Below, piece by piece: positions 1 to 64,000 of a stretch of 64,000 bases of DNA (position 1 is the stretch's first letter; each line of letters opens with the position of its first letter). The DNA is from a virus: positions 64,001 to 128,000 of the IMG/VR virus record IMGVR_UViG_3300032236_001503, one strand, 5' to 3'. The notes below the pieces were generated by a model. The model saw only the letters and a program-made list of their open reading frames with translations, searched no databases and was not told the origin of the DNA. Made by a program: the position numbers and the translations under genes.

Positions 1-9
1 TTTAAAAAT

Positions 10-684
10 ATGCCAATAAGTGATTCATTTATAAAAGATTTTTATAGTAAAATCTATATAATCCATTGGAAACCTTTAACAGATAGAAGGAAATACATGG
101 AAGAGAAGTTAGAAGAGTTTGGTTTAACTGATTTAGTTGAATGGGTGGATCAATATGATACACCGCAAACCGTTAAAAAGATAAAAAACGTATTCCATAT
201 TAATCCAAGATTAATTTGTGTTAATCAATCACACATATATTGCTATCAGCAACAGATAAAAAACAAATACAAACATATTCTAATATTAGAAGATGATGTT
301 GATTTTGAAAATATAGATTTTCGAATGTATTTGGAGCAAGCAGCATTTGAATTTGAAAAATTAGATGGCGATGTTGCATTTTTAAGCTCTTGTTGTGGGT
401 TAGAAGTTAAAAATAAAAAGCCACCAACTCTTTTATACTACGATGCATCATATGTAACTAGATGTACTGGTGCTTATATAGTAAATTTAAGATGCGCAGA
501 GAGTCTTTTAACCGCTGCTAGGTTAAACTGTCACGCAATCGATAGAGTTTTAAATTTCTTTATACCTCAAATGAAAATAAGAGTTTTATGGTCAGGATTA
601 GTGTTAAAACAGGGTTCTGAAACTGGAAAATACAAGAGTTCTTTTCTTGATATAAGAGATAAAAACGGTAATTACAAATCATAA
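10..684 (+). CDS. Glycosyltransferase family 25 (Lex2/LgtB-like)
   Basis: KIYIIH..L.DRR N-terminus, ILEDDV DxD motif, CTGAYIV..A..LL....AID segment. Confidence 0.8.
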   Translation: MPISDSFIKDFYSKIYIIHWKPLTDRRKYMEEKLEEFGLTDLVEWVDQYDTPQTVKKIKNVFHINPRLICVNQSHIYCYQQQIKNKYKHILILEDDVDFENIDFRMYLEQAAFEFEKLDGDVAFLSSCCGLEVKNKKPPTLLYYDASYVTRCTGAYIVNLRCAESLLTAARLNCHAIDRVLNFFIPQMKIRVLWSGLVLKQGSETGKYKSSFLDIRDKNGNYKS

Positions 685-685
685 G

Positions 686-1285
686 ATGAATATTAATTTA
701 GAATTGATTAAAAAATATTTCTATCCTAAAAATATATTGGATATAGGTGCTCATTGTGGTGAATTTAATGCTCATTGTAAACATTTTTTTCCTGATAGTA
801 AAATAATCTCAATTGAGGGAAACGAATCATGTGAAAAGGATTTAAAAAATAATAATTGTGATTACAAGATACTTTTACTAGGTAAAGAAAATAAAAAAGT
901 CATCTTTTATAAACAAAAAAATGATTTAGCATGTACTGGCAATTCAATCTATAAAGAGTTAACGGAGCATTTTAATGATGATGCTTTGATTAAAGAAGAA
1001 AAGAATCTTAAAATGTTAGATGAAGTTTTTGATCAAACTACTACATTTGATTTAATCAAAATAGATACACAAGGTTCTGAATTAGATATACTAGAAGGTG
1101 GCAAAAATCTTGCACAAAAAGCAAATGGAATACTGTTAGAGGTCTCATTAGAGCCTTATAATGAAGGTGCTCCGTTATATGATGAAGTTGTAAAATACAT
1201 GAATAGTATTGGGTTTGAAGAAAAGGAAACATTGGATAGAAGCACAAATCCCCCACAATTAGATATTCTCTTTATAAAAAAATGA
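686..1285 (+). CDS. FkbM-family SAM-dependent methyltransferase
   Basis: LDIGAHCG SAM motif; IKIDTQGSELDILEG. Confidence 0.9.
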   Translation: MNINLELIKKYFYPKNILDIGAHCGEFNAHCKHFFPDSKIISIEGNESCEKDLKNNNCDYKILLLGKENKKVIFYKQKNDLACTGNSIYKELTEHFNDDALIKEEKNLKMLDEVFDQTTTFDLIKIDTQGSELDILEGGKNLAQKANGILLEVSLEPYNEGAPLYDEVVKYMNSIGFEEKETLDRSTNPPQLDILFIKK

Positions 1286-1974
1286 AATTATATACCGTAT
1301 TCACAGAATCACATTATGGAATGTTCAAAGATTACTTTATAAAAAGTTTTCCATTTGATCCAAATTTAGAACTTGTAGTTAAATTCAAACCTCAAGTTTG
1401 CGCCAGTTCGGAATTTCAAAGCGAAGGATGGAGAGAAACTATGATGTACAAGGTTCAATGTTTCATTGATGCAGCATATGAAACCGAATATGGACAGTGT
1501 TTCATGTTTGCAGACCCAGACATTCAATTTTTTAAACCATTTCATGATGACGTTTTAAAACATCTTGGTGATGCGGATGCAATTTTTCAAAATGATTTCG
1601 GAGGTGGTGTTAATACTGGATTTTTTATGATGAGATCAACTCCCGTTACAAGAGCATTTCTTCAAACAGTAAAGGGCAATCTCCATAACTTCCCAGAAGA
1701 ACAAGTTTGCTTCAATCATTTATTGAGAAATTTTCAAATATATCCAAAAATTGCATTTAAATGGGGAATGCTACCAAAAGAATATTGGACTTATGGTGAA
1801 TTAGCAATTCATAGAGCTACACAACAAAATCCAGCAGGTACATGGCAAGGTAATGAAGAATTTGATATACCTGAAAATATAATAATTCACCATGCCAACT
1901 GGACAACTCCATTTAAAAATAAAATAAAGTTATTAGATGTCGTAAAGGAGAAATACAATGCTAGATCAGTTTAA
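1282..1974 (+). CDS. Nucleotide-diphospho-sugar transferase (GT77-like, GT-A fold)
   Basis: FADPDIQFF DxD motif, VNTGFFMMR, EQ..FN, HHANW...K. Confidence 0.75.
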   Translation: MKLYTVFTESHYGMFKDYFIKSFPFDPNLELVVKFKPQVCASSEFQSEGWRETMMYKVQCFIDAAYETEYGQCFMFADPDIQFFKPFHDDVLKHLGDADAIFQNDFGGGVNTGFFMMRSTPVTRAFLQTVKGNLHNFPEEQVCFNHLLRNFQIYPKIAFKWGMLPKEYWTYGELAIHRATQQNPAGTWQGNEEFDIPENIIIHHANWTTPFKNKIKLLDVVKEKYNARSV

Positions 1975-2839
1975 AAAATACTGCGTACAAGCGGTTTATC
2001 CACCATATCCATTCTACCATCAGGGGAAATATATAGAACAATATTTTTTAGATTTTTATTTAAAAAATATCGATATTTTTGAAAAATTAGATAGACAATA
2101 TATTCCAGTTACATGGACTGATGTGTATTTAAAGGCAATGAACGTTGTTCCTGAACTCCAAAAGGAAATAAACAATCTTGATAGATCTAAGAAATATTTT
2201 ACGGTATCTCAACATGACGATGCTCCATTTCAAAAATTTCCACCAAATACGATACATTTTTCTGCTGGTGGCAATATGCCAAATACCATACCAATTCCTT
2301 TAATTTGTAGTGAAATACCAAACAAACCTGTTGTTGAAAAGGATATATTTTGCAGTTTCGTAGGGAGTATAACTGATGCTGGTACAGGTTGGGGTAAAGT
2401 TGCACATCAAATTAGAATGAAAATGCTGGAAGTCTTGATAGATAAACCAGAATATGTTTTAAAACCTAAAAATTGGTCAGAAGAAGTTAAAAATGAAAGG
2501 CAAGATTTGTTTTTAAACACAACGGCACGAAGTAAATTTACATTATGCCCAAGAGGTTACGGAGCAACTAGTTTCAGATTATATGAATCAATGCAATTAG
2601 GTTCGGTTCCAGTTTATATCTATTTCCAAAGACCATTTCTACCATTTGTTGATGATATTAATTGGGATGATATATGTGTATTGGTTGATTTTGATGATAT
2701 TGAAAGCTTAGATGATAGATTAAAATCTATTTCGGATGAAAGATATAACTTTATGCTTGAAAAAATAAAAGAAGTTTATCCAAAGTATTTTACTTTACAG
2801 GCAATGTGTGATAATATCTTAAAAACATTGCAAAAATGA
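1958..2839 (+). CDS. Exostosin-family glycosyltransferase (GT47-like)
   Basis: SKFTLCPRGYGATSFRLYESMQLGSVPV...LPF...INW signature. Confidence 0.85.
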   Translation: MLDQFKKYCVQAVYPPYPFYHQGKYIEQYFLDFYLKNIDIFEKLDRQYIPVTWTDVYLKAMNVVPELQKEINNLDRSKKYFTVSQHDDAPFQKFPPNTIHFSAGGNMPNTIPIPLICSEIPNKPVVEKDIFCSFVGSITDAGTGWGKVAHQIRMKMLEVLIDKPEYVLKPKNWSEEVKNERQDLFLNTTARSKFTLCPRGYGATSFRLYESMQLGSVPVYIYFQRPFLPFVDDINWDDICVLVDFDDIESLDDRLKSISDERYNFMLEKIKEVYPKYFTLQAMCDNILKTLQK

Positions 2840-3600
2840 AAAAAGTATTATTTGTAATTGCCCGTTATAACGATTATAGGCAAAAAATATTTGACGAGAT
2901 CATCTCACCTAGAAATAAAGCTTATTGTGATAAGCATGGATTCAAATATATCGCAATAGGAAACGAAACACCGCTTGAATTATATAGAGGTAATCCAACT
3001 TGGTGGAAATTTTCAATAGTAAAGGATTTAATTGATAATGGAACTCTTAAAGACGGAGATATTCTTGCACATATTGATGCAGATATGTATTTCGTTAACG
3101 ATTCTGTCTCAATTGAGACACCAAAATCATTTTCTTATGCAATAGATTCAGGAAATACTCATTGCATGGGTTGGTATAGTATAAAAATTAATGATTGGTC
3201 AAAAAAATTAATCAATAACATTCTTTCAGAGGAAAGGTTTAATAAATTATATAAAAAAATTTCAATACATGAAAGATTCAAAACCCATTCTAGTTTTTGG
3301 CATGAGTTTAGAGAACAGGCAAGTTGGTATAGTTTAGCAGGAATTAAAAGACATTCGGATAAATCATTTTGGGAATACCCAAATAATGGTTTTCATAGTG
3401 AAATGAACGAAGATGTAATCTATTCCTTGGATGAACTCAATGAAAACGTTCAGATATTCGATACTGGATTTAATGTAACCGAATGGGTTGGTGAAAGTAG
3501 TTGCCAATTTGATATAAACAGAGTATCTATTGATAATATTGTCATTAGACACTTTGCTGGTGGTCAAGATTGGAATAATGTAAGAAATTGGATAAATTAA
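2836..3600 (+). CDS. GT34-like (GMA12/MNN10) glycosyltransferase
   Basis: AYCDKHGF, W.K, HIDADMYF DxD motif, EQA, C-terminal IRHFAG. Confidence 0.7.
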   Translation: MKKVLFVIARYNDYRQKIFDEIISPRNKAYCDKHGFKYIAIGNETPLELYRGNPTWWKFSIVKDLIDNGTLKDGDILAHIDADMYFVNDSVSIETPKSFSYAIDSGNTHCMGWYSIKINDWSKKLINNILSEERFNKLYKKISIHERFKTHSSFWHEFREQASWYSLAGIKRHSDKSFWEYPNNGFHSEMNEDVIYSLDELNENVQIFDTGFNVTEWVGESSCQFDINRVSIDNIVIRHFAGGQDWNNVRNWIN

Positions 3601-3603
3601 AAC

Positions 3604-4638
3604 ATGAAAAAAGTTTTAATTACTGGTTCTGGTGGATTAATCGGTTCTGAAGCCGTTGAATATTATTGCAATAAAGGATATCAAGTTGTTGGAACTGATA
3701 ATAATTTCAGAGAGTATTTTTTTGGTAAAGGTGGATCGGTTAATTGGAGAATTGATGAATTAAAAAAACATAAAAACTATACTCATTATAGTTCCAATAT
3801 TGTTAATAATGAAGAAGTTGAAAATATCTTTATACAACAGGGTAAATTTGATTTAATTATCCACACTGCGGCTCAGCCATCTCATGATTGGGCATGTAAG
3901 GAGCCATTAACAGATTTTAACGTTAATGCAGTTGGTACAATTAATCTTTTGGAGTCTTATAGATTACACTCACCAGATGCAGTTTTTATTTTTACATCAA
4001 CTAATAAGGTTTATGGTGATACCCCAAATAGAATTGCACTTCACGAAGACGAAACTAGATTTAGCCCTCTTTTACCCGACCATGAAAACGGTTTTGATGA
4101 ATGGGTATCAATAGATCATTGTCTACATAGCGTATTTGGTGCTAGTAAAGTGGCTGCTGATATAATGGTTCAAGAGTATGGAAAATATTTTAATTTAAAA
4201 ACTGTTGTATTTAGAGGTGGTTGCTTAACCGGACAGAAACATTCTGGTGTTGAACTTCATGGATTTCTTTCATACTTGGTAAAATGTTGTGTAAATGACA
4301 TTCCATACACAATTTTTGGGTATAAAGGTAAGCAAGTAAGAGATAATATCCATTCCTCAGATTTAATATCAGCCTTTGATGCATATTTTGAATCACCTAG
4401 ATCAAATGGCGAAGTTTATAATATCGGTGGAGGAATTTATTCAAATTGTTCGGTCTTAGAAGCTATTTCTCTAATAGAAACTATGACAAATAAGAAATTA
4501 AACTATACTATTAAAGATGAAAACCGAATGGGTGATCATATATGGTGGATTTCTGATACTAGAAAATTTAAAAGACATTTTCCAAATTGGAAACAAGAAT
4601 ATAACATGGAAAAAATCATAGAAACCTTTTTAAAATAA
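3604..4638 (+). CDS. NAD-dependent epimerase/dehydratase (CDP-paratose 2-epimerase/RfbE-like extended SDR)
   Basis: TGSGGLIG Rossmann motif, HTAAQPSHD, STNKVYGD, GYKGKQVRDNIH. Confidence 0.85.
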   Translation: MKKVLITGSGGLIGSEAVEYYCNKGYQVVGTDNNFREYFFGKGGSVNWRIDELKKHKNYTHYSSNIVNNEEVENIFIQQGKFDLIIHTAAQPSHDWACKEPLTDFNVNAVGTINLLESYRLHSPDAVFIFTSTNKVYGDTPNRIALHEDETRFSPLLPDHENGFDEWVSIDHCLHSVFGASKVAADIMVQEYGKYFNLKTVVFRGGCLTGQKHSGVELHGFLSYLVKCCVNDIPYTIFGYKGKQVRDNIHSSDLISAFDAYFESPRSNGEVYNIGGGIYSNCSVLEAISLIETMTNKKLNYTIKDENRMGDHIWWISDTRKFKRHFPNWKQEYNMEKIIETFLK

Positions 4639-5501: not shown

Positions 5502-6193
5502 AGTTAAACACATATGTTATTCATTATACTAAGTTAAAAGAGAGAAAAGATAATATTATTTCTCTTTTTAATGATAATGATTTTAATTTAAATTTTATAG
5601 AAGAATTTGATAAAGAAGAGATAACAAAAGAAAACATAAGGTTGTTTTACAATCCAAATAAAGAATTATTTGATTCGAAAATCAGCCCCCTATGGGATAA
5701 CTCAATCCATAAATTTCGTTATTTAACTTACCCAGAGGCATCTTGTGCTATAAAACAAGTTTTAGCGATAAAACAAGTTTCAGAACAAGAAAATGAATAC
5801 GCATTAATCATAGAAGATGATGTTTTGCCAAAAAATTCAAATTTTTCAAAAGAAATTGAAAATGTGATATCAAACTCACCCAAAGATTGGGATGCAATAT
5901 TTATAGGTGAAGGTTGTGGTGAGGAATTTATTAAATTTAAACTAAATGATTTTCAAAAAATAAATGATAAAGTCTATAAAGCTAATCATCCAGCAACAAA
6001 TTGTGCAGAAGCATATATTTTAAAGAAAAGTTCAGCCCAAAAGATATATGAAAATATCATACCATTCCAACTTGCATTTGATTGGGAACTTGCATATATA
6101 TTCTATAAGCTAAAAATGAATATATACTGGGCTATACCGCCTATTTTTGTTCAGGGTTCAAAAAACGGAACTTACAACACAAGCATACAATAA
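5498..6193 (+). CDS. Glycosyltransferase family 25
   Basis: TYVIHYTKL.ERK, IIEDDV, P.DWD.IF.G, CAEAYIL...A, AFDWEL; paralogue of 10-684. Confidence 0.8.
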   Translation: MKLNTYVIHYTKLKERKDNIISLFNDNDFNLNFIEEFDKEEITKENIRLFYNPNKELFDSKISPLWDNSIHKFRYLTYPEASCAIKQVLAIKQVSEQENEYALIIEDDVLPKNSNFSKEIENVISNSPKDWDAIFIGEGCGEEFIKFKLNDFQKINDKVYKANHPATNCAEAYILKKSSAQKIYENIIPFQLAFDWELAYIFYKLKMNIYWAIPPIFVQGSKNGTYNTSIQ

Positions 6194-6194
6194 A

Positions 6195-11019: not shown

Positions 11020-13647
11020 ATGGCTTATAGAAATGTCTATTATGACAACAATAATGAGGTAATTCACCTCTTTACTTGGGATAAAGACGGCAATAGGACG
11101 AAAGTTCTATGCTCATATGAGCCATATCTATATCTAGAATCGCAAAATGGTTGCGATGGCAAGTCAATTTTTAATTCTACCCTTAAAAAGGTTAAATTTA
11201 ATAACCAAAGAGCTAGAAATAAGTTCGTACAAGAGACTCCGATTACGAGATTGTTCTATAATCTTGGAACTGATCAACAATTTCTTCTTGATAACTTTAA
11301 AAATGACGTAGATAAAGAAGATTATGGTAAACAACCATTAAAAATCTTCTATATTGATATTGAGACTTATTCTGATGGCACAGGCTTCTCAAAGGCATCG
11401 GATGCCGATGATCCAATTAACCTTATTACGATTTACGACTCATTAAGTGAAATGTTTTATACTTTTGGCTGTAAAACATACGCAACTTTAGAAAAAAACG
11501 TAAGATATATCAAATGTACATCAGAAAGAGATCTTCTTACTCAATTTATTAAGTTTTGGAAGAAAGATTACCCTGATATTGTTACCGGATGGAACATCGA
11601 TGGCTATGATATTCCCTATATCATCAATAGAATTTCAAAAATATGGGATAATGAAGATAAACCAAAGGAATTATCACCTGTTGGTAGAATTCAGTTTAGA
11701 GAAAACGTAGCAGTTAATAAATTAGGTCAACAAATTGATCGTTGGTATATTCACGGCATCAGTATTTTGGATTATATGGAAGTTTATAAGACTTTCGCAC
11801 AAGGAAATCGTGAAAATTATAGTTTAAACTATATTGGTGAATATGAATTAGGCGAAGGAAAGGTTGCAGTTGGTAGTTATTCCCTTTCTCGTCTGGCTGA
11901 TGAGGATTGGATGAAGTTTGTTGACTACAACATTCAGGACGTTCGCATATTGGTTAAGCTTGAGGAGACTTTGAAGTATTTAAAGCTAATTCGCAACCTT
12001 TCTTATAGGGGGTTTGTTCCATTCACAAAGGCACTGGCAAAGGTTTCGGTCATTACTGGTGCAGTTGCGCACCAAGCATTAAAGGATGGATATATAATCC
12101 CAACATTTACTGATGAAAGAGAGAAGAAAAAGTTTGCTGGTGGTTATGTTTATGAGCCTAAACCGGGTCTTTACGAAGATCTAGTCACATATGACGCAAA
12201 TAGTCTATATCCCAATACAATTATCACATTAAATATTTCACCAGAGACCAAAATCGGTAAAATATTGTCATTTGAAGACAATAAATTTCAAGTTTTACTC
12301 ACAAATCAAAAAACAGTTTCCTTTACAAAGGAAAACTTTAAAAAGTTTATTGATGAACAACAGCTTTCTATCACGAAGGCAAACATTCTTTACTCGCAGA
12401 AAGCAAAAGGAGTTGTTCCAAAGTTAATTGATAAACTTTACAAAGAAAGAATTGCAGCAAAGACAAAAATGTTAGAGGCAGAAAAGAAATTAGTTAAAAC
12501 TACCGATGAGAATCAGAAAAAGGTATTGGAAGAAGAGGTGGTAGATAACTACACACTTCAGAACGTGTATAAAACTTTGCTCAACTCCATTTATGGTGTC
12601 TTTTCCAACATCTACTCGCCACTTTTTGATATTGAACATGCCGAAAGCGTCACACTAACTGGTCAAGCAGTTGTAAAAACTGGTGCAAAGATCGTTCACG
12701 AATATGCAGTTGGTAAGGGATTTGATGGAAACCTGCATGATATATGCGTTTACTCTGATACCGATAGCGTATACTTCAGTTTTAGTAAATTATTTGCTAA
12801 GAATGGTATCACTTTGTCCAATAAAGATGGTGAAATTACTCCAGAAGCTAATCAATTGATTAAAGATATCGGTGCGGATCTCAATACTAAAATTAATGAA
12901 TGGGCAAAGGCTGAATTAAAAACTATTGACCCAAGATATTTCTTTAAAAGAGAGAAAATTTGTGATGTTGCCTTGCTTCAGGCTAAGAAATATTACATTC
13001 TTCACATCTTGGATAGCGAAGGTGTTCCAACCAATGAATTCTTATATAAGGGAATTGAAATTGCTACATCGAAAATATCAAAGGAGATTAAACAAATGTT
13101 AAAAAATGTTGTTGAGTCTGCAATTCTCTCAAAGGATAGAAATAAAGCTGGTCAATTATTTCAAGATAGTTACGAAGAGTTTTGTAAACTCCCCGTTGAC
13201 GCAATTGCAACAAGAAAAAAGGTAAACAATTATAAAAAATATGAAGGAATGATTCAGGAAAGCGGTGAAGTTGGTAAAGGAACACCGGGTCATACCAAAG
13301 CAGCTATTCATTTTAATACACTTCTTGAGAAATTAAATTTAACTAACAAGTATCATACAATTCAAACTGGAACAACTATCAAAGTTTTTTATTGTAAGAA
13401 AAACAAATATAATTATGATGTTCTTGCGTTCGGTGATGAATTTCCTCAAGAGATCCAAGAATATATCAAACCAGATTATAAGATGATGTTTGAAAAGAAT
13501 GTTATGCCAGTTGTAACAAGAATTTTTGAAATCATTGGGTGGCCCACACCAGCAATCGGTTGCCAAGAACATACTGATCTTATTGATTTATTCTCCCAAG
13601 ACATAAATGATTTTTTATATGAAGACGAAACTAATATCGATAACTAA
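11020..13647 (+). CDS. gp43: Family B DNA polymerase (T4 gp43-like)
   Basis: ExoI DIET, YNIQD, YDANSLYP, KTLLNSIYG, YSDTDS, KKYY; uninterrupted ORF. Confidence 0.97.
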   Translation: MAYRNVYYDNNNEVIHLFTWDKDGNRTKVLCSYEPYLYLESQNGCDGKSIFNSTLKKVKFNNQRARNKFVQETPITRLFYNLGTDQQFLLDNFKNDVDKEDYGKQPLKIFYIDIETYSDGTGFSKASDADDPINLITIYDSLSEMFYTFGCKTYATLEKNVRYIKCTSERDLLTQFIKFWKKDYPDIVTGWNIDGYDIPYIINRISKIWDNEDKPKELSPVGRIQFRENVAVNKLGQQIDRWYIHGISILDYMEVYKTFAQGNRENYSLNYIGEYELGEGKVAVGSYSLSRLADEDWMKFVDYNIQDVRILVKLEETLKYLKLIRNLSYRGFVPFTKALAKVSVITGAVAHQALKDGYIIPTFTDEREKKKFAGGYVYEPKPGLYEDLVTYDANSLYPNTIITLNISPETKIGKILSFEDNKFQVLLTNQKTVSFTKENFKKFIDEQQLSITKANILYSQKAKGVVPKLIDKLYKERIAAKTKMLEAEKKLVKTTDENQKKVLEEEVVDNYTLQNVYKTLLNSIYGVFSNIYSPLFDIEHAESVTLTGQAVVKTGAKIVHEYAVGKGFDGNLHDICVYSDTDSVYFSFSKLFAKNGITLSNKDGEITPEANQLIKDIGADLNTKINEWAKAELKTIDPRYFFKREKICDVALLQAKKYYILHILDSEGVPTNEFLYKGIEIATSKISKEIKQMLKNVVESAILSKDRNKAGQLFQDSYEEFCKLPVDAIATRKKVNNYKKYEGMIQESGEVGKGTPGHTKAAIHFNTLLEKLNLTNKYHTIQTGTTIKVFYCKKNKYNYDVLAFGDEFPQEIQEYIKPDYKMMFEKNVMPVVTRIFEIIGWPTPAIGCQEHTDLIDLFSQDINDFLYEDETNIDN

Positions 13648-14260
13648 ACCAGAAGTTGAAGGATTAACAACCGCAGAAGAATTAATTTCTTATTGTGCAA
13701 GAGTTTCAAATCCATCTAATCAGATGAATACTGAAACAGCACCAAGACTTCTTGCTTATTTAATTAAGCATAAGCACTGGAGTCCTTTTGAAATGGCAAG
13801 TATGACCGTAGAAATCAAAACTTCTCGTGCAATTGCTGCACAAATCCTTCGTCATCGTAGTTTTTCTTTTCAAGAATTTTCTCAAAGATATGCATCAGTT
13901 ATCGGTACTGAAAGAATTGAATGGAGAAAACAAGGTAAGACTAATAGACAAGTTGGTGATGAAGTTATAAAACTTCCGATTAAATTAGAAGATGATTTTC
14001 AATGGATTCAAGATAAATGTGAAGATCTTTATCATGATTTAATTAAAGAAGGAATTGCAAAAGAATGCGCTAGGATGGTTCTCCCTCTCAATACTTCAAC
14101 TACAATCTATATGAGTGGAACTATTCGTAGTTGGATTCACTACATTGATATTAGAGCAAAGGAAGACACTCAAAAAGAGCATCGTGAGATTGCATTAGAG
14201 ATTAAAGAAATATTCAAAAATAATTTTCCTAATACAGCAGAAGCATTAGATTGGAAATAA
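13619..14260 (+). CDS. thyX: Flavin-dependent thymidylate synthase
   Basis: HWSPFE, RHRSFSFQEFSQRY ThyX motif, ARMVLP, TQKEHR. Confidence 0.95.
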   Translation: MKTKLISITKPEVEGLTTAEELISYCARVSNPSNQMNTETAPRLLAYLIKHKHWSPFEMASMTVEIKTSRAIAAQILRHRSFSFQEFSQRYASVIGTERIEWRKQGKTNRQVGDEVIKLPIKLEDDFQWIQDKCEDLYHDLIKEGIAKECARMVLPLNTSTTIYMSGTIRSWIHYIDIRAKEDTQKEHREIALEIKEIFKNNFPNTAEALDWK

Positions 14261-33067: not shown

Positions 33068-34135
33068 TTATTGTTTAATTCCTATAAGATTTTCTGCTCC
33101 ACCAACAACGGTTTTTGCTACACCGTTAATCGCAGCAGCAGCAGTACTAGCTGTTTTATTAACGACATTCATGGCTTCATTATTTAATGGGTTTACAACT
33201 TGAACTTTAGTACCACCCATTGTACCTGCGAATATATTAGAACTGTCAGGAAGCAATTGTTTGAATGTTATACTGACTTTATAAGCCTCTGGAACTAATA
33301 ATGCATTACCATTAGTATTACCAGTGTAACCAGTTTCAGATAGATATCTTGTTGTACCTATACTTTGAATATCAAGATTACTGACATATGCTGCGGGCCA
33401 ATATATTCCACCAAATGCCCAACCATCAAGAGTATAAATTTTAGGTGGAATATATGTAATAAAAGATGTTCTATTTTTTAAATTTTGAAAGGTAAACAAA
33501 GTGACAAAACAATAATTGTCAAATGCACTTTTTGTATCAAATGTATTATATAAAGGAAAACTTATAGTTATTTCTTGTAAAGCGGTATCTGTATATTGAT
33601 ATGTTGATTCAATACCCATACCCGGTGACACCACACCACCTAATGCTGCTATACCAGCACCGATTTGATTACCCTTTGATGATTTATCACCTTTACCCTC
33701 AAACAAACCAAGAATATCACCCATTCCAGCTGCGTTATCCCATTGATTATTAAAAGATCTTATTTTTGGGTTATCACTACTAATTAACCAAGGAAATGCA
33801 TAACTAAATCCAGTTGGGTTAGCAGCATATAATGTTAAATACGGATCTACGTTTGCTAAACTTCCAGTAACGGTTGCGTTAGCAACAACTAATGCATTAG
33901 CTATATTTTGAACCCACGCACCATATTGTAATTCACTTTCGGTTACTAAAATATATGGAACCTCGGATACATCACCTGAATTTGACCAAGTGAATTCATT
34001 CAATATATCAATTAAACCGGAACCATTTGGTTTTAAATATGGGATATTTTTACTGACTAAATTTAAACCCGGTATATTGGCATTACTATTAGTATAACCA
34101 ACATTTGAAAATAATCTATTTGATGGTATAGCCAT
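33068..34135 (-). CDS. Baseplate/tail tube cap protein (gp48-like)
   Basis: Follows the tape measure gene; YIPPKIY, AYV..L.I, P.A..VSI.F..L. Confidence 0.55.
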   Translation of the reverse strand: MAIPSNRLFSNVGYTNSNANIPGLNLVSKNIPYLKPNGSGLIDILNEFTWSNSGDVSEVPYILVTESELQYGAWVQNIANALVVANATVTGSLANVDPYLTLYAANPTGFSYAFPWLISSDNPKIRSFNNQWDNAAGMGDILGLFEGKGDKSSKGNQIGAGIAALGGVVSPGMGIESTYQYTDTALQEITISFPLYNTFDTKSAFDNYCFVTLFTFQNLKNRTSFITYIPPKIYTLDGWAFGGIYWPAAYVSNLDIQSIGTTRYLSETGYTGNTNGNALLVPEAYKVSITFKQLLPDSSNIFAGTMGGTKVQVVNPLNNEAMNVVNKTASTAAAAINGVAKTVVGGAENLIGIKQ

Positions 34136-46946: not shown

Positions 46947-47228
46947 TTACTCCTGACCTATTCCATTTTCAATATTTTTTTTAAAATGTTGATTATTATT
47001 TTTATAATATTGATTAGGTTTATCTGGACGTTCTACGCCATAAGTTAGGTTCTCAACACCTCTACAATCTTTAATATCGAAATAAAGATATTCACCCGTT
47101 TCATGTAAATGAACCAAAAATACACCATTTTGATTCATACCATAATCTATATGAATTATGGCGAATCCTTCACCCTTTGGGGTTTGAATCCAAAGGGGTG
47201 GTTCTAGTTGTAATTGTGAAACACTCAT
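46947..47228 (-). CDS. Hypothetical protein
   Basis: 93-aa ORF, QL.PP.W..TPKG.G.A...IDYG. Confidence 0.65.
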   Translation of the reverse strand: MSVSQLQLEPPLWIQTPKGEGFAIIHIDYGMNQNGVFLVHLHETGEYLYFDIKDCRGVENLTYGVERPDKPNQYYKNNNQHFKKNIENGIGQE

Positions 47229-48061
47229 GCGTTATTAATTAATAATTCTGCTTCTCTTTCGAGATTAAGAATATTTATCAACTCGTAATCATCTTGACCA
47301 GCAACCCAAATAATATTACAATCACCAACTTCAAATGGTGTATTTCTTTCTAGTATTAGTTTATACAAACAAAGCTGAAGACTATATTTACCAAGTTCAC
47401 ATTTAGGAACCGTATCAATTGGTGATAACATAGTTTCACCTTTATAACCTTGCCTTTTTATTTCCTTATTAGTTTTATAATCGAATAAGGCAAGTTTACC
47501 AGTTTTCTTATTAAATGAAAGGTTATCAATGGTTCCACAGATTTTAGTTTCTTTATCACCAACGACAAATTCAGATTTTAGAAGAATATGATCTTGTCTC
47601 CACCATTCATAAAAATTTTTAAAATTCTTAAGCATAAGAGCCATATCCATATAATATGTTGCGAGTTGATCATCGGTATATCGACCATTATGTTTTCTGT
47701 TTAAGAATTTAATAATGTCTTCCTTATCAATCGGGATAGTTCTCCTCTGATAAAATTCTTCAACCATTAAATGAAACTCGTTGCCTTTATGACAAGAGTA
47801 ATCTTTATTATATTCCCATTGCCATAAAACATCTTCAACTAATTTACCATCTCTTTTTGCAACCCTGTGTGCAATACTATTATCAAATGGTTTTTCGTAT
47901 TTTGAAATAAGTTGAGAAACAGACATTGCTGCTCTCTTACCATCAATTTCGTAATGGTGATCCTTCTCAAAAAACTTGATAGAAGAAAATGCTTCTTCTA
48001 AAAGTATTAAGCTATTAAAATTAATTTCTACCGAATCCGACGATTCTTTCTTTATCTTCAT
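47225..48061 (-). CDS. PD-(D/E)XK exonuclease (RecB/Cas4-like)
   Basis: H.Y..DG, SVS.LI, KG...H...E, SE, CGTID.L, FDYKT, Y.LQL.LY; start is either 48061 or 48076. Confidence 0.8.
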   Translation of the reverse strand: MKIKKESSDSVEINFNSLILLEEAFSSIKFFEKDHHYEIDGKRAAMSVSQLISKYEKPFDNSIAHRVAKRDGKLVEDVLWQWEYNKDYSCHKGNEFHLMVEEFYQRRTIPIDKEDIIKFLNRKHNGRYTDDQLATYYMDMALMLKNFKNFYEWWRQDHILLKSEFVVGDKETKICGTIDNLSFNKKTGKLALFDYKTNKEIKRQGYKGETMLSPIDTVPKCELGKYSLQLCLYKLILERNTPFEVGDCNIIWVAGQDDYELINILNLEREAELLINNA

Positions 48062-49235
48062 TTGTTTTTTCTTCATTTAAATCAACTTCTTTTTCCAGAT
48101 TATAAATATCAGCAACTGACATTGGTTTGGTAATGTCATCGATAGTTTTCTTTTTATATTTCAAACTCTTTGCGAGTTTTTTTGCATCCGATATTGGCAA
48201 TGCACCAAACTCGTAATCAACTTGCAATCTTCCTTTTCTCCTAAGTGCCGAATCAATTTCATTCTTTGGGCAGTTGTAAGTTAATATCACAGAAGTCTTT
48301 AAGATATCACTCATAATACCATCGGATAGATTAAGGAGAGAAGAAACCGCAGATGAATCCATACCATCACCGTGTCTTTTCATGATTGCTTTCTCCGCAT
48401 CTTCTAAAATAATAACCGAATTGGGCTTTTGAATTAAAACACTTAAGCAATTGGGATCAGAGGTAAATGTCTCAACCATAGTAGTTGGGATATAAATAAA
48501 GTCCCTATCAACCTGACTAGCAAGATATTTAATATATGTAGTTTTACCAGTACCCGGTAACCCATGAAACATAAACAACCCACTCTTATTATTTGTTAAT
48601 CTTTCTTTAATGGTTTTATCAGTTTCCAAAAACTTTGATCCATAATTAAGTTCAAGATCAATGTTTTCGGGTACATTTACACTAATAGGCTCAAATGAAT
48701 AATCACCATATTGATTCTTTATGAACAAATGAACCTTTGATCCTTCTTCTTTGGATATGAATTTTTCAAAATCTTCAAAGTGATAATCTTGAACACTAGT
48801 TGGTGCAGCTATCATAATATCATATTTTTTAGTATTAATTTTATTTTCTTTTCTAGCCTTTTCGTCTTCGTCAAAATTAAACGGAAGACCAGCAACATCC
48901 ATTGTCATGTTGTCATCTTCTTGTCCACTTGCTGAAAGTTTGATATAAATGTCTTTATAATGAAACCAAAATGTGCCACCCCTAAAATGTTTGTAATTTT
49001 TAGTTAAATGCTTTATTTTACCTGTTGAACTTGATTTAATAAGTTTGGAATTTTCCAAAAGAAAGTCAAAAACATCTTCGTTAAATTTTTCATCAATGAA
49101 GAAAAATGAAGGAGAACAGTCATAAGTTTTTGAAATGAAACGAGTTATATTAAAATCATTTCCATTTGATAATGAATACAAATCTTTATTATCTTCGTTA
49201 TGTTTGTAGATCTTGGATTCTTTTAACTTAAACAT
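48021..49235 (-). CDS. AAA+ ATPase
   Basis: GLPGTGKT, ILEDAE, LLNLSDG, ID.AL.RKGRL. Confidence 0.88.
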   Translation of the reverse strand: MFKLKESKIYKHNEDNKDLYSLSNGNDFNITRFISKTYDCSPSFFFIDEKFNEDVFDFLLENSKLIKSSSTGKIKHLTKNYKHFRGGTFWFHYKDIYIKLSASGQEDDNMTMDVAGLPFNFDEDEKARKENKINTKKYDIMIAAPTSVQDYHFEDFEKFISKEEGSKVHLFIKNQYGDYSFEPISVNVPENIDLELNYGSKFLETDKTIKERLTNNKSGLFMFHGLPGTGKTTYIKYLASQVDRDFIYIPTTMVETFTSDPNCLSVLIQKPNSVIILEDAEKAIMKRHGDGMDSSAVSSLLNLSDGIMSDILKTSVILTYNCPKNEIDSALRRKGRLQVDYEFGALPISDAKKLAKSLKYKKKTIDDITKPMSVADIYNLEKEVDLNEEKTNEDKERIVGFGRN

Positions 49236-52636: not shown

Positions 52637-53224
52637 ATGAGTCATCTTAATAGAACTACAGTTCTGGTGCTTAATCGCAACTGGCAAGCTATTCACGTTA
52701 AATCGCCAGCGGAAGCATTGTCGATGATGTATACTGATGCCGCAACCGGATTAGATATATTAGGAGAGGATCAAATGGTTCCATATCGTTGGAAAGATTG
52801 GATTAAGTTACCAAAGGACGACGATTCTGATTACGTATCAACTGTTAATGGCAATATCAAAATACCAAAAGTAATTGTGCTTTGTAAATTTAATAAAGTT
52901 CCGATGAAAAGACCTAAGTTCTCCCTGAGTGGCGTTTGGAATCGTGACAATGGTATTTGTCAATATACGGGTAAAAAACTTTCAAAGAACGAAGGTAATG
53001 TTGATCACGTTATGCCAAGAAGTAGAGGTGGTAAAACTGATTGGAGTAATTGTGTTCTTGCTCATAAAGAAGTTAATGCGCAAAAAGCCAATAGAACACC
53101 AGAAGAAGCTGGTTTAAAGCTCATTAAACCACCAGCTATTCCTAGGCATATGCCGACAACATTCTATATTAAAAATAAACATAATATCAAGGAATGGGAT
53201 ATGTTCCTTAATTTTGAATCATGA
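52637..53224 (+). CDS. HNH endonuclease (McrA-like family)
   Basis: VLVLN, RD..CQYTG, DHV.PRSRGG...W.N.V.A....N..KANRTP. Confidence 0.88.
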   Translation: MSHLNRTTVLVLNRNWQAIHVKSPAEALSMMYTDAATGLDILGEDQMVPYRWKDWIKLPKDDDSDYVSTVNGNIKIPKVIVLCKFNKVPMKRPKFSLSGVWNRDNGICQYTGKKLSKNEGNVDHVMPRSRGGKTDWSNCVLAHKEVNAQKANRTPEEAGLKLIKPPAIPRHMPTTFYIKNKHNIKEWDMFLNFES

Positions 53225-58083: not shown

Positions 58084-58090
58084 ATTAATA

Positions 58091-58876: not shown

Positions 58877-59445
58877 GACTTTTTATTTATATTAACTTGT
58901 GAATTAATCAATTTCAATTCTTCAACTTGCTTTTCAAGTTTTACAACTCTTAAAGCTAAATCCGAAGTTGCTTGCTCCCAAGTGGTATCTACACTATATC
59001 CACCCCAATGTATAGGATATATTGGATGTTTTTGTAATCTTACATCACCACAATCCTTTGGTGGAAAAATCTTTAATGAGTTATTTTCATTTTTAACATC
59101 TTGCAGATCCTTTTTTAGTTTATCAATTGTTTCCTTTGCTCCATCGATTATCTTATGAAGAGCCTTGATTTGAAGCTCTAGCTTTTGATTTAATTCACCA
59201 ACTGGTTCACATGCATAACAAGAGCCTTGATAACCATCTCTATATTTTGCAAGCATTTCCATTAGATCAACATTCTCTTGCTTAAGATGTCTGAGATCTT
59301 TAATCTCTTTCATAAGCTCGTCAATAATTTCTTGTTGTTCCTGTAGATAACCAACTGGTTCCCAATCTGTAGTAGGAAACGGAGATAATCCATTATCTTC
59401 TAAAATTTCATCAACACTTTTTTTTGGGGGAAATAAATTGAACAT
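58873..59445 (-). CDS. Coiled-coil hypothetical protein
   Basis: 190 aa, contains CYACE; promoter upstream. Confidence 0.65.
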   Translation of the reverse strand: MFNLFPPKKSVDEILEDNGLSPFPTTDWEPVGYLQEQQEIIDELMKEIKDLRHLKQENVDLMEMLAKYRDGYQGSCYACEPVGELNQKLELQIKALHKIIDGAKETIDKLKKDLQDVKNENNSLKIFPPKDCGDVRLQKHPIYPIHWGGYSVDTTWEQATSDLALRVVKLEKQVEELKLINSQVNINKKS

Positions 59446-59451
59446 AACACT

Positions 59452-59486
59452 ATGATAGATGAAATTATATGGATGTCAAATAAATA
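59452..59486. promoter_or_regulatory. Divergent promoters (sigma70-like on -, late-type on +)
   Basis: Minus strand: TTGACA-N16-TATCAT, 6 nt before ATG 59445. Plus strand: TAAATA at 59481-59486, 5 nt before ATG 59492. Confidence 0.65.
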
Positions 59487-59491
59487 ATTCT

Positions 59492-59650
59492 ATGCAACAG
59501 AGAATTGGTAAAACTGGAAAAAAACATGACACAATCGAACATTGGTTAGGGCATCACAATCGAAAGTTTGAAATGCTTAGAACAATCACTAGTCTCATTA
59601 GTGCCGTTGCTTCTACAATCGTATTATTAAAACTTTTTAATGTTATATAA
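59492..59650 (+). CDS. Small protein with a C-terminal TM helix
   Basis: 52 aa, basic N-terminus, hydrophobic tail, late promoter. Confidence 0.55.
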   Translation: MQQRIGKTGKKHDTIEHWLGHHNRKFEMLRTITSLISAVASTIVLLKLFNVI

Positions 59651-59652
59651 TA

Positions 59653-60144
59653 TTAACGATAAAAAAGATACATTTTTTTATCATTTTCATATATAAATGT
59701 AAAGTATTTATAATTTATGGTATGAGCCAAAGTTGATACCATTTTATCATAGAGCTTAACTCTGGATGGTTCAATAGCCATAATTCTGGCAAATTTTGGA
59801 TTAAATTTATCAGCAAAATCTTTTAATCTAGCAAAAACATTACTAAAAACTTCTACTGATTCACCAGAACCTGTTACACCATAAGATGCTTCATTACCTT
59901 TTTCTTCAAATACGATATTCCATACCAATTCATTTGGATGATTTAATACCATATCGTTTAAATCATCTGGTGGAACCGATCCATCATTAACAATAAACAT
60001 AAATTTTTTTATATTCGTGGGATCTGATTCTATGTAAACTCTGTATTCTTTATTATTTTTTGTTATAAAATCCGAAAAGAATTCACCAGCACGAGAACCT
60101 TCTTGCCAGTTTATATCCACATCTATGTTAGTAATATCAAACAT
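59653..60144 (-). CDS. Hypothetical phage protein
   Basis: TG.G....VF..V.....F.....P.......SR.KLY motif. Confidence 0.65.
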   Translation of the reverse strand: MFDITNIDVDINWQEGSRAGEFFSDFITKNNKEYRVYIESDPTNIKKFMFIVNDGSVPPDDLNDMVLNHPNELVWNIVFEEKGNEASYGVTGSGESVEVFSNVFARLKDFADKFNPKFARIMAIEPSRVKLYDKMVSTLAHTINYKYFTFIYENDKKMYLFYR

Positions 60145-60165
60145 TAATATAATTAGTTATTTGAT

Positions 60166-60525
60166 TTATATTTCAAGAACTCTATTTTTAATTTCTCCAA
60201 GCTGTTTTTTATCATACCTTGCGTGTCTATCACAAGCATATTGAATATCATCATCAGGCATTTCCAGATAAAAATTAATCTCTTCGATTATGGTTTCCTT
60301 TAAAAGGCGAATCATTTCTAATTCTGCTTCTTCGTATGTGTTCCATATGGTATCTTCATATCTGTGGTTTATATAACCTTTATGCTCGACAATATATTCG
60401 ATTGAATCACCATAAAAATAATGAGAATAGATATAAAAATGACAATCTCTATCTTTATGATATTCACTCGTAATAAGGTTATACCATATTGTATTAAGCG
60501 TTATTATTTTTTGATTATTTGTCAT
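60166..60525 (-). CDS. Hypothetical protein
   Basis: Start at ATG 60525; contains HKDRDCH. Confidence 0.6.
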   Translation of the reverse strand: MTNNQKIITLNTIWYNLITSEYHKDRDCHFYIYSHYFYGDSIEYIVEHKGYINHRYEDTIWNTYEEAELEMIRLLKETIIEEINFYLEMPDDDIQYACDRHARYDKKQLGEIKNRVLEI

Positions 60526-61096
60526 ATATTTTAGTTCCTTCTTCGTAATCTTTAAATAAATGTCCATTTTTATCTTTGTCGGAAAGAATAGGTACTCTAT
60601 CACCAATACCAAATTGCCCTAATTGCCAATCAATTTTTAAATCGGGATCATTCCACATAAGCGTTCTTTCATATTCAGGATACCTATAATCAGATACAAG
60701 ATAATTAAATCCACCTTCAATTGATTTTACCATAAACCCATGAGCGCATCCTGCTGGTATATAGAGAAGGGTTCCTCTATTTAAAACATCAAACTTATAA
60801 GAATCCCACATACCAAATGTAGGCGAATTTTTTCTTAAATCAACAAACACATCAAGTATGATACCACTATTAACCCACACTAATTTGGCTTGTGGGTGTT
60901 CAATTTGATAATGCAATCCTCTTAAAACATTCTCATTTGATTTACTTTTATTCATTTGAACGAAGTCATGATGAATACCCAATAACTCACTAAAATCATT
61001 GGAATTCCACATTTCGGAAAATGATCCTCTATCATCTTCAAAGACTTTAGGTTCAATAATCCAAGCCCCTTCTATTTTTGTTTTTGTAAATTTCAC
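60515..61096 (-). CDS. rfbC: dTDP-4-dehydrorhamnose 3,5-epimerase
   Basis: F.D.RG.F.E, VLRGLHYQ, Q.KLV, VDLR..SPTFG.W, IP.G.AHGF, WNDP.L.I.W, LS.KD. Confidence 0.95.
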   Translation of the reverse strand: MKFTKTKIEGAWIIEPKVFEDDRGSFSEMWNSNDFSELLGIHHDFVQMNKSKSNENVLRGLHYQIEHPQAKLVWVNSGIILDVFVDLRKNSPTFGMWDSYKFDVLNRGTLLYIPAGCAHGFMVKSIEGGFNYLVSDYRYPEYERTLMWNDPDLKIDWQLGQFGIGDRVPILSDKDKNGHLFKDYEEGTKIYDK

Positions 61097-61572
61097 CTCT
61101 TTATAAGTTCTGGTGAATATTGTGGAATCAAAGATGGTGGTTCCGGTTGACCTTTAAGACCTTCTTGATGCGCTGTCCTCCTTCTCAAATCACTGGAAGA
61201 AAAATCATGTTTACGAGTATGATAATAAATTTCAATTCCGTGATCAATACAGTATTGCTTACCAGTAAAATCACGATCCTTATATTCCTCAGAAAGAAAA
61301 CGAATATGCATCGTTTGAGTCATAATCATTTGAAGAAGATCATACTCAGTTGAATACACTAAAATCTCATCCACATATTTGCAACCTTGAAGTTGAACAT
61401 ATCTCTCATAGATAGATTGAATTGGTTTGTTTTTAATACCGGGTCTATCAATAGTAGGATCAACTTGAAGAGCAACCTTCAAGTAATCACACATTTCCTT
61501 TTCTTGTTTAAGCATCGTGACATGACCTGCGTGAAGTAAATCAAATGACGAGCAGTTGAATCCTATTTTCAT
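61093..61572 (-). CDS. tagD: Glycerol-3-phosphate cytidylyltransferase-like protein
   Basis: FDLLHAGH, KNKPIQS..ER, YVDEI, R.H.FSSS.LR. Confidence 0.85.
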   Translation of the reverse strand: MKIGFNCSSFDLLHAGHVTMLKQEKEMCDYLKVALQVDPTIDRPGIKNKPIQSIYERYVQLQGCKYVDEILVYSTEYDLLQMIMTQTMHIRFLSEEYKDRDFTGKQYCIDHGIEIYYHTRKHDFSSSDLRRRTAHQEGLKGQPEPPSLIPQYSPELIKR

Positions 61573-61573
61573 A

Positions 61574-62026
61574 TTAATATCCCATATTAAGCTCTTGCGC
61601 TTGCTTTGTCAATTCATCTAAAACATTTGCACGAGAATCTTTAATGCATGGTGTAATTTCACTTTGAACTATTTCTGGAAATTCACGACCAAGCATTGGT
61701 ATTATAACTTTTGGTATAGATGTGTGATCCGCAATTATATCTTGAAGAACTTGAATAGCAGCATCTTTTTGTTTACATGATAGTTCAAGTTCTTTGATCT
61801 CTTCTTCCAATAATGAAATTTTTTTATTTGCTTTTTGTAGTTTCAAATCGGATTCAAGACCATCAAGATAAAAATTATTTTTCTTTTGAATTTCAATACA
61901 ACATCTTGTTTGCGCATCATACATATTCTCTTCCCACCCACAGAGATATTGCATCTTACCAGATAATGTAACCAATTCTTGTTCAGAACCGCAGTGTGGA
62001 CACTGTGAATGAGTTTTATTTTCCAT
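61574..62026 (-). CDS. Hypothetical protein (Zn finger plus coiled coil)
   Basis: CPHCG...YLCG. Confidence 0.6.
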   Translation of the reverse strand: MENKTHSQCPHCGSEQELVTLSGKMQYLCGWEENMYDAQTRCCIEIQKKNNFYLDGLESDLKLQKANKKISLLEEEIKELELSCKQKDAAIQVLQDIIADHTSIPKVIIPMLGREFPEIVQSEITPCIKDSRANVLDELTKQAQELNMGY

Positions 62027-62606
62027 AGTTTTCAAGACCAAAGACTTCTAATTCAATAGCCCCAAGCTCCATAGGAGTATAGTTGATATGCTCACAAGAA
62101 ACACAGAAGTATCTTGGATCAATTTCTTGTTTGTATATTATTTCTCCACATGAATCATCTGAGTTTGGATATGCTACAGAATGATATACTTTCTTATCAT
62201 GAATATGACCATGAACGTTTATCTTATGAGCATTACCAAAAGTACTAGGATGCACAGGGATATGGCTCATGATAATACCATTATCCAAGCGATGAGTTCC
62301 ACGAATATCTTTGAAATACTTCGCATACTCTTTCATCTCGTAAATGTCATGATTTCCTTTGATAAGGATTTTTTTACCATTGAGTTTACCAAAGTTAGCA
62401 ATGTCTTTCTTTTTCTGAGCCACATCACCAAGAATATATACTTTGTCACTTGGATGAGTGACTACTTTATTCCAATTCTCAATCAAAGCAGCATCATGCT
62501 CTTCTACACTCTTAAACGGGCGTATAGGATGTCCATCCTCTTTAATGAGGCTGCACATATCAGAATCCCCGAAATGGAGATCAGCTATGAGGAATACATT
62601 TTTCAT
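62016..62606 (-). CDS. Calcineurin-like metallophosphoesterase
   Basis: ADLHFG, LGD, GNHD, SH.P, HGHIH. Confidence 0.9.
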   Translation of the reverse strand: MKNVFLIADLHFGDSDMCSLIKEDGHPIRPFKSVEEHDAALIENWNKVVTHPSDKVYILGDVAQKKKDIANFGKLNGKKILIKGNHDIYEMKEYAKYFKDIRGTHRLDNGIIMSHIPVHPSTFGNAHKINVHGHIHDKKVYHSVAYPNSDDSCGEIIYKQEIDPRYFCVSCEHINYTPMELGAIELEVFGLENYGK

Positions 62607-62839
62607 TCAAGCATCTTAACAGCATCTCTATATGCTGTCAATGCTTTTATAATAGAATCAAGCTCATCGTTTTCAAAAGTCATGAATCTTTTTGGAGAAC
62701 GATCAGCATCTAAATGACTAGAACATATATCAGTTGTAAACATCTCAGTCCACTCGTAGTTATCTGGTGATTGCCTGAATGTTACAAAAAAATCTTCCAG
62801 TTTTACATTTACTTGTACGCTTGTATTTTCGTTTTTCAT
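62603..62839 (-). CDS. Hypothetical protein
   Basis: ATGA-coupled ORF. Confidence 0.6.
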   Translation of the reverse strand: MKNENTSVQVNVKLEDFFVTFRQSPDNYEWTEMFTTDICSSHLDADRSPKRFMTFENDELDSIIKALTAYRDAVKMLE

Positions 62840-63126
62840 ATATTCCAAGTTTCTCTATATCCAGAATGACCACAATCATCACATGAGCTTTCATCAAACT
62901 TTGTATCATCGGATTGAAAACATTCTACTAAATCTTTAAACGAGCAAGTACCATTCTTGATTCCTTCTTTAAGTTTTACAAGAAGATAATCCAGAAGTTC
63001 ATCATCTTCTTCGGGTTGCTTAACACCTTCTTCTACTTCTCCGCTTCTCCATACATCATTAATAGAGAATCCCCAGTTATAACAGGACATCTCATCATAT
63101 ACAATTTTATATTTTGGTTCATTCAT
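62836..63126 (-). CDS. Hypothetical acidic protein
   Basis: ATGA-coupled ORF with C-terminal CDDCG. Confidence 0.6.
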   Translation of the reverse strand: MNEPKYKIVYDEMSCYNWGFSINDVWRSGEVEEGVKQPEEDDELLDYLLVKLKEGIKNGTCSFKDLVECFQSDDTKFDESSCDDCGHSGYRETWNI

Positions 63127-63332
63127 TTGTTTTTTTCTTTCTTTTTCTTTTCTATTAATTCTTTAAAGGATGAAACATTATTTTCATAATACAATTCTTC
63201 TAATCCTTGCTTGACACCTTGGATAAATCCACTCACTAACCAAGAAGCAAAGGTTAATATGAAAACAATTATTCCCAATGCCAATGTGCCAAGAATAATT
63301 GCAGCTGATATTTTTATAATTTCTAGTGACAT
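63123..63332 (-). CDS. Small membrane protein
   Basis: N-terminal TM helix; start at ATG 63332. Confidence 0.6.
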   Translation of the reverse strand: MSLEIIKISAAIILGTLALGIIVFILTFASWLVSGFIQGVKQGLEELYYENNVSSFKELIEKKKKEKNK

Positions 63333-63336
63333 GTTA

Positions 63337-63471
63337 TTAATAAAGATAATCAATTAATGCAGATATGATAAACCAAATTCCAAATATAAAACACCCAACA
63401 ATTAAAATAGATAGAAATAAAGATAAAAGGGTTACTAAAGTAATTCTAATAAATTGAAATAAAGTTATCAT
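63337..63471 (-). CDS. 44-aa hydrophobic membrane peptide (not in the ORF track)
   Basis: Translated by hand: MITLFQFIRITLVTLLSLFLSILIVGCFIFGIWFIISALIDYLY*; ATGA overlap with the upstream stop. Confidence 0.6.
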   Translation of the reverse strand: MITLFQFIRITLVTLLSLFLSILIVGCFIFGIWFIISALIDYLY

Positions 63472-64000
63472 AGATCTTTATAAATGCTATCATATGCACC
63501 AATACTATTCAAAGCTTTTTTTCTTCTTTTTTCTTGTGCGACTAAATAAAAGTTCGCAAGCCCCGTATCAATAGCTGCACAACTTCCATCTTCATCAATC
63601 TCAAGAACTTGGGTTAATCCACAATCGATATTGGCATTAATACCACCATTCTCATACCATATAGTAACTTTATTCATCGTTGGAGTATGTCCAAAAACTT
63701 GTTTTAATCCTCTTGTAACATGACCCTCTCTAAAATCATCACACCAGAGGATACCACCAACACTCCGCATACCACCACGACAACGACCAACCGCACCAAT
63801 AGTTTCATTCCAAGTACGATTCAAATAATCATCAGTAGCCTTTGCAAGCTTGTCTAGAATAACTTCGTTACTCATACCTTTGATTGGATGCTCAAACCAA
63901 TGAGGATGAATACCAGCGTGAGTAAACCAAAAACCATTACCATAATGAGCAAATTTGATTTTATCCCAATCCTTTGCTTCCATGACACGATTAATGGCAT
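63468..64000 (-). CDS. Metallophosphoesterase, 5'-truncated by the window edge
   Basis: THAG, GILWCD, QVFGHTP, IDCG; frame stays open to 64000. Confidence 0.75.
   Translation of the reverse strand, partial: AINRVMEAKDWDKIKFAHYGNGFWFTHAGIHPHWFEHPIKGMSNEVILDKLAKATDDYLNRTWNETIGAVGRCRGGMRSVGGILWCDDFREGHVTRGLKQVFGHTPTMNKVTIWYENGGINANIDCGLTQVLEIDEDGSCAAIDTGLANFYLVAQEKRRKKALNSIGAYDSIYKDL

Follow-up and report, generated by a model that had tools for sequence, protein, structure and literature searches.

Loss of CCWGG and many other Type II-like words from the genome of an uncultured T4-like virus, and 7-deazaguanine genes in its unpurged relatives

Locus and data set

We analysed bases 64,001-128,000 (the window, 64,000 bases) of the 163,237-bp linear virus record IMGVR_UViG_3300032236_001503, with regard to the loss of the word CCWGG (W, A or T) and the coding of the Pro-Gly dipeptides that can create it. 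The record has 33% G+C, a T4-like gene set, an estimated completeness of 73% (CheckV) and 18 called tRNA genes, among them a single tRNA-Pro (UGG). The window includes genes for a DNA polymerase, ThyX, three candidate nucleases and a DNA methyltransferase, and a fourth nuclease-like open reading frame (ORF) lies beyond its end (Table 1). No close cultured relative was found (terminase identity ≤34%); IMG/VR holds many relatives, the complete ones being 198-212 kb long. Our comparison set comprised 22 related records, in full or nearly so, together with about 80 polymerase loci, and CCWGG in relatives was counted on the fetched records. As a codon-shuffle null we used 300 synonymous-codon shuffles of 75 window genes, in which protein sequence and codon usage were kept.

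CCWGG is absent from the window and Pro-Gly codons are recoded

Neither CCAGG nor CCTGG occurs in the window, against 43.7 CCWGG sites expected under a maximal-order Markov model (z = -8.3). Within window genes, core and accessory alike, codon shuffling gave 25.0 expected sites (minimum 17) and none was observed. The purge that the original prediction had read from the letters by eye therefore stands against a codon-shuffled null, and its description as complete is correct for the window but not for the whole record, which retains 3 sites (59.8 expected under the same null). Every one of these residual sites is a CCA-GG Pro-Gly, and two of the three are situated in the major capsid gene.

The two capsid-gene sites lie 21 bases apart (L002:3638-3663), and the same gene harbours rare remaining copies of GGGCCC, CACGTG and CCAGTC. 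These survivors may be due to translational selection in favour of CCA or, alternatively, to a tract of recent recombination.

All 17 Pro-Gly dipeptides of the window are encoded with CCS (S, C or G; CCG 10, CCC 7), whereas in the background CCS accounts for 16% of Pro codons (133 of 840). This agrees with the original prediction in codon choice and in position, except for one dipeptide that begins at 34068 and had been placed at 34048.

Table 1. Features of the window and of its downstream flank
Feature	Position	Strand	Remarks
DNA polymerase	11020-13647	+	runs directly into ThyX
ThyX	13607-14260	+	overlaps polymerase end; slot that holds the DpdA3-like gene in G004 and G010 is empty here
PD-(D/E)XK exonuclease, phrog_298	47225-48076	-	core gene, present in purged and unpurged relatives alike
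HNH protein	52637-53224	+	in purged and unpurged relatives
N4-cytosine/N6-adenine DNA methyltransferase, 327 aa	54595-55578	-	PF01555, SPPY motif
PD-(D/E)XK-type nuclease, 186 aa	57523-58083	-	E42, D71, D79 and K81 invariant or nearly so
Second nuclease-like ORF, 172 aa	record 129926-130444 (L005:3926-4444)	-	1.9 kb past window end
Pro-Gly/CCSGG sites in plus-strand genes	10716, 12163, 13285, 42129, 43016, 49668	+	part of 17 Pro-Gly = 17 CCSGG
Pro-Gly/CCSGG sites in minus-strand genes	31514, 33621, 34068, 38451, 39091, 41781, 45099, 45108, 48553, 58368, 61439	-	part of 17 Pro-Gly = 17 CCSGG
Span of all Pro-Gly/CCSGG sites	10716-61443	both

Many other words are purged, and apparent control words are forced by protein

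The exclusion had been regarded as specific to CC(A/T)GG, a view that the counts contradict: besides CCWGG, about 17 other Type II-like words are purged. In the codon-shuffle analysis, window genes contained no CGCG (a word that had previously gone without a full scan), GGYRCC, CTGCAG, CAGCTC, CTCGAT, GGATCC, GTGCAC, CCATGG, AGGCC, YGGCCR, RGCGCY, CCTNAGC or GCAGGC. Across the genes of the record, observed/expected counts were CGCG 0/37, GGYRCC 0/39, AGGCC 0/37, CAGCTC 0/32, CTGCAG 0/31, CTCGAT 0/27, CCTNAGC 0/25, YGGCCR 0/24, RGCGCY 0/17, GGATCC 0/16, GTGCAC 0/14, GCAGGC 0/14 and GGCGGA 0/12, with CCATGG (1/19), CCAGTC (2/24), RCCGGY (3/41) and CCCGC (4/28) strongly reduced. Counts near expectation were obtained for GATC (492/515), GCWGC (175/176) and GAATTC (50/59), and no split (bipartite) Type I-like word stood out as avoided in the record. 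Most of the purged words are textbook Type II sites.

CCSGG and GGWCC, which had served as neutral controls, are not neutral. The 17 CCSGG sites of the window all fall at its 17 Pro-Gly dipeptides, and the 18 GGWCC sites all fall at its 18 Gly-Pro dipeptides; in frames where the word is synonymously avoidable, the window has 0 CCSGG (2.6 expected) and 0 GGWCC (8.6 expected). These words seem tolerated because Pro-Gly and Gly-Pro have no codings other than CCN-GGN and GGN-CCN, respectively. Control words can thus appear to be tolerated merely since the protein forces them. Every avoidable CCWGG, CCSGG and GGWCC is gone, as are about 15 further words of 4-7 bases; over the whole record, avoidable frames hold CCWGG 0/34, CCSGG 1/7 and GGWCC 2/24 (observed/expected). 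A flank rule by which sites are retained only after G was not seen, the surviving CCSGG sites being ACCGGG and CCCGGT.

Avoidance extends to the protein sequence

No dipeptides of the proteome are more depleted than Pro-Gly (32 observed, 118 expected; 0.27) and Gly-Pro (48 observed, 118 expected; 0.41); Ala-Ala, which forces GCNGC, shows no depletion. Only 13 of 44 aligned Pro-Gly dipeptides of an unpurged relative (G004) are kept here, versus 46% for other Pro-x and 53% for other x-Gly pairs, and in the six unpurged relatives Pro-Gly stands at 0.79-1.64 of expectation. Where CCN-GGN or GGN-CCN is forced, the dipeptide has been lost in 60-70% of cases, and the remainder use the less harmful middle base.

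The CCW/CCS choice switches between close relatives

Among the 22 related records, 16 have likewise lost avoidable CCNGG together with Pro-Gly (0.16-0.75 of expectation). Their forced sites are almost only CCS in seven, mainly CCW without CCSGG or CCGG in four, and mixed or mostly CCS in five. The nearest relative, G006 (77% mean identity; sister in a 17-gene FastTree phylogeny, support 1.0), is of the CCW type and lacks CCSGG instead. At shared Pro-Gly sites the present genome has CCS versus CCW at 14 of 15 positions in comparison with G006 and at 11 of 11 in comparison with G007; orthologous Pro-Gly sites are CCW in G006, G007, G022 and G003. The 17-gene tree is compatible with either direction of this switch.

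A change of the middle base from A/T to C/G runs against both the AT bias and the sole tRNA-Pro (UGG). The CCW/CCS change does not resemble a deamination product and reflects selection that varies between lineages. Dcm sites are mutation hot spots, and deamination of 5-methylcytosine at CCWGG could in principle erase the site without selection, yet we consider such decay hardly credible here: deamination does not yield the A/T to C/G change at the Pro-Gly middle base, CTAGG and CTTGG, the words that it should produce, show no enrichment (1.06 and 1.02 of expectation), and no C5 methylase was found in the phage record or in 24 related records.

Unpurged relatives carry 7-deazaguanine genes

The six records with normal Pro-Gly and no purge provide a natural control. 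Four of them cover the replication region, and all four carry 7-deazaguanine genes; three of these four encode a DpdA3-like protein between polymerase and ThyX, and QueD, QueE or FolE also occur among the four. The DpdA3-like protein shares 37-38% identity with the DNA guanine transglycosylase encoded by Flavobacterium phage immuto_2-6A and with a protein of Campylobacter phage CP220. DpdA3 was defined in these two phages as the enzyme by which all guanines are replaced, and the DNA of immuto_2-6A withstands restriction enzymes with G in their sites (PMC10516641). The genes of the unpurged relatives predict guanine modification in them. No purged record examined, including three complete genomes, contains 7-deazaguanine genes, and DpdA3 and Que genes were not found in the present record (73% complete) or at the syntenic slots.

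On a wider polymerase tree, DpdA and the purge never coincide: 30 tips bear the gene and are unpurged, and 27 are purged and without it. Three more unpurged outgroup loci carry QueC, and three loci end before the slot. Loss of DpdA appears to be a likelier direction than gain, because DpdA-bearing clades surround the purged ones. A literature look-up found no prior link of DpdA to site purges of this kind.

Many other family members (L570-L610 and further polymerase loci) have a DpdA3-like gene without QueD or QueE within 10 kb, and these carriers may use host precursors or genes located elsewhere. The accessory genes of the present record include a short PurA and a GMP reductase (L005:7148-8152 and L006:985-1923, both on the minus strand). 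A PurZ-based Z-genome was rejected, since the PurA-like gene retains the catalytic aspartate motif GDEGKGK.

None of the candidate nucleases tracks CCWGG loss

The original prediction had offered, as one branch, a phage-encoded nuclease directed at CCWGG (or methyl-CCWGG), against which the phage protects itself by lacking the site, and had named the HNH protein and the two PD-(D/E)XK genes of the window as candidates. HNH 52637 and exonuclease 47225 are conserved across CCS-type, CCW-type and unpurged relatives, and are 89% and 84% identical, respectively, in the sister G006, which keeps CCA/CCT-GG at Pro-Gly. The 57523 nuclease is missing from all 22 other family records, seven of which are equally CCWGG-free, and most of its distant homologues without a methylase come from phages with CCWGG sites and without GGWCC. 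With the second nuclease-like ORF included, none of the four candidates tracks CCWGG loss.

Some observations are compatible with a self-directed nuclease: the sporadic nucleases (57523 and 129926-130444) are missing in G006 or G007, which differ in Pro-Gly coding, 27% of the genome is unseen, and CCWGG is missing at four of the six loci whose 57523 homologues are close. However, all four candidates have close homologues in CCWGG-keeping phages (HNH 89%, exonuclease 84%, 57523 70%, second nuclease 85%); the 70% homologues of 57523 occur at L244 (2 sites) and L249 (1 site), and the 85% homologue of the second nuclease occurs in the CCW-type locus L652 (3 CCA-GG, 0 CCSGG). Conversely, the complete relative G025 is CCWGG-free (0 observed, 100 expected) and has neither sporadic nuclease. 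The three remaining CCWGG sites, two of them in the capsid gene, also oppose this explanation, one enzyme cannot account for about 17 other words, and the pairing of 57523 with a methylase would make site loss needless. We therefore give a phage-encoded CCWGG nuclease only a very slim chance and do not read the purge as a sign of a new phage weapon directed at this word.

A putative phage-borne restriction-modification pair

The viral family to which the 57523 nuclease belongs is unnamed, comprises at least 371 clusters and has no counterpart in Pfam, PHROG, NCBIfam or PADLOC. Its fold is PD-(D/E)XK-like; the best fold match, D212 (PDB 2w8m), reached Z 6.6 with an rmsd of 3.7 over 112 residues, and no match was strong. 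Homologues 65-86% identical to 57523 are encoded immediately ahead of, or near, a counterpart of methyltransferase 54595. In another T4-like group (L244, L247, L249, L251, L255) the two lie in tandem as one cassette, flanked by neck gp13 and portal; small genes intervene between them here (1.9 kb apart) and in L257, and G006 and G007 retain the methyltransferase alone (88-89%). Owing to this adjacency, 57523 and 54595 look like a phage-borne restriction-modification (R-M) pair. A restriction role for 57523 is not certain, because distant homologues (L259-L280, L296-L311; G027-G032), from unrelated phages of 24-74 kb, lack the methylase, and two of them adjoin a helicase gene.

GGWCC is absent from 22 methylase-free loci and from five larger records, with 11 copies in one further record. 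As an established target of the 57523 family this word was rejected and is kept only as a lead, given that 48 of 105 relatives without the nuclease (46%) also lack GGWCC. A comparative search for release of avoidance found no word released in methylase carriers.

The second nuclease-like ORF has no Pfam, PHROG or NCBIfam family. It is shared with a distant relative (G008) at 62% identity, which suggests horizontal exchange. A different protein of 181 aa, which has a nuclease-like GEFAV motif and matches no Pfam family, is encoded two genes upstream of the methylase in the G007-type phage (L252:9001-9546, plus strand).

Host

A search within Verrucomicrobiota recovered full-length homologues of HNH 52637 in 62 of 201 genomes, at most 58% identical and chromosomal, and we consider a verrucomicrobial host reasonably probable on this basis. 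In the order of the best HNH match, which is a candidate order and not an identified host, EcoRII-C occurs in 10 of 151 genomes and MvaI/BcnI in 4 of 151; this scatter of EcoRII- and MvaI-type enzymes is the patchy distribution that a model of avoidance of host enzymes needs. No Shine-Dalgarno motifs were found in the phage genes.

These nucleases bear on a Type IV scenario, in which a host Dcm-like orphan methylase marks CCWGG in progeny DNA that is then cut in the next host. It would select against CCWGG in the same way, guanine modification would block it too and, for any single word, it is indistinguishable by sequence alone. It would nevertheless have to operate anew on each of about 18 words, for which patchy ordinary Type II systems are simpler, and EcoRII-type nucleases do occur in the candidate order. 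We regard the Type IV scenario as highly unlikely.

Ribonucleotide reductase was discarded as a host clue: its matches were mostly phage-like contigs in bins, and among 251 Verrucomicrobiota genomes only one had a match. Four AT-rich contigs (L087, L090, L092, L093) with ribonucleotide reductases 76-86% identical were binned in unrelated bacterial and archaeal assemblies; L087 at least carries further genes of the same phage family, and the four are probably misbinned phage DNA.

Discussion

The purge very probably reflects a lytic phage that has no chemical DNA shield and avoids many Type II restriction sites of host enzymes. Host restriction, the other branch of the original prediction, thus holds as the source of the pressure but not in the form of one EcoRII/Dcm system; a panel of many enzymes is the better description. 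In the mechanism that we propose, the guanines of an ancestor would have been replaced by a 7-deazaguanine, and lineages without the DpdA3-like enzyme would have faced Type II enzymes of their hosts in shifting combinations. One of these would resemble EcoRII or MvaI and cut CCWGG; another, similar to NciI/BcnI or ScrFI, would cut CCSGG or CCNGG. The sites would have been taken out one after another by selection. In the present lineage the CCWGG cutter would be dominant, so that Pro-Gly came to be written CCS despite the AT bias and the tRNA-Pro (UGG).

We lean, by a modest degree, towards a fuller account, in which repeated loss of DpdA3 within a widespread uncultured family led to a genome rewrite costing 40-85% of Pro-Gly, the middle base at the remaining Pro-Gly forms a two-state record of CCNGG enzymes that flips between sisters, and the phage carries an R-M pair of an undescribed family.

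Several points weigh against these interpretations. The loci L603, L609, L615, L618, L619 and L621 are unpurged and have no DpdA or Que gene within their 10-kb flanks; the tips of the tree are non-independent and represent about three transitions; the record is 73% complete, and the missing part could hold a modification or nuclease gene. The host is narrowed down only to a probable phylum, which leaves its cognate enzyme a postulated one, and we know of no enzyme that fits the purged asymmetric words CAGCTC, CTCGAT, GCAGGC and AGGCC.

One family seems to display both anti-restriction strategies, chemical masking or sequence erasure, the latter with a measurable cost in protein sequence. With the two strategies side by side, the rate and cost of site avoidance become testable by comparison, and the restriction repertoire of an uncultured host may be readable from its phages.

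Comparison with known systems

EcoRII sites are scarce in T7 and T3. More broadly, phages avoid orthodox Type II sites with no Type I signal, and coliphages that encode a hydroxymethylase show no such avoidance (2.4% versus 55.8% of sites; Rusinov et al. 2018, PMC6286503); the BASEL collection (PMC8594841) is a further reference for such avoidance by lytic dsDNA phages. The present case resembles this known avoidance in that orthodox Type II sites are nearly eliminated from a non-temperate phage, no Type I signal is seen and relatives with predicted DNA modification are exempt. Unlike the hydroxymethylase coliphages, the shield of the relatives would be a DpdA3-like guanine replacement, and the contrast lies within one uncultured family. 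It further differs from known cases in that about 18 words were removed together, Pro-Gly and Gly-Pro were lost, and the CCW/CCS choice switches between sisters.

In relation to the DpdA3 system of immuto_2-6A and CP220 (PMC10516641, PMC6884629), the unpurged relatives have a 37-38% identical protein adjoining the polymerase, and some carry QueD, QueE, FolE or QueC. Unlike DpdA3 phages, the present phage has none of those genes in the available 73% or at the syntenic slots. The sites of EcoRII-Dcm, MvaI/BstNI, BcnI/NciI and ScrFI/SsoII (CCWGG, CCSGG, CCNGG) correspond to the removed words; the enzymes would be those of the host and were not observed directly.

Virus-encoded R-M systems exist in chloroviruses. 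Several T4-like phages, in which a 57523 homologue and an N4/N6 methylase are encoded in tandem, have an arrangement like the chlorovirus nuclease-methyltransferase pairs, and D212, to which 57523 bears a fold likeness, is a fusellovirus nuclease. The phenomenon itself is known; what is added here is the link to DpdA3 within one family, the Pro-Gly codon switch and an uncharacterised nuclease-methylase pair.

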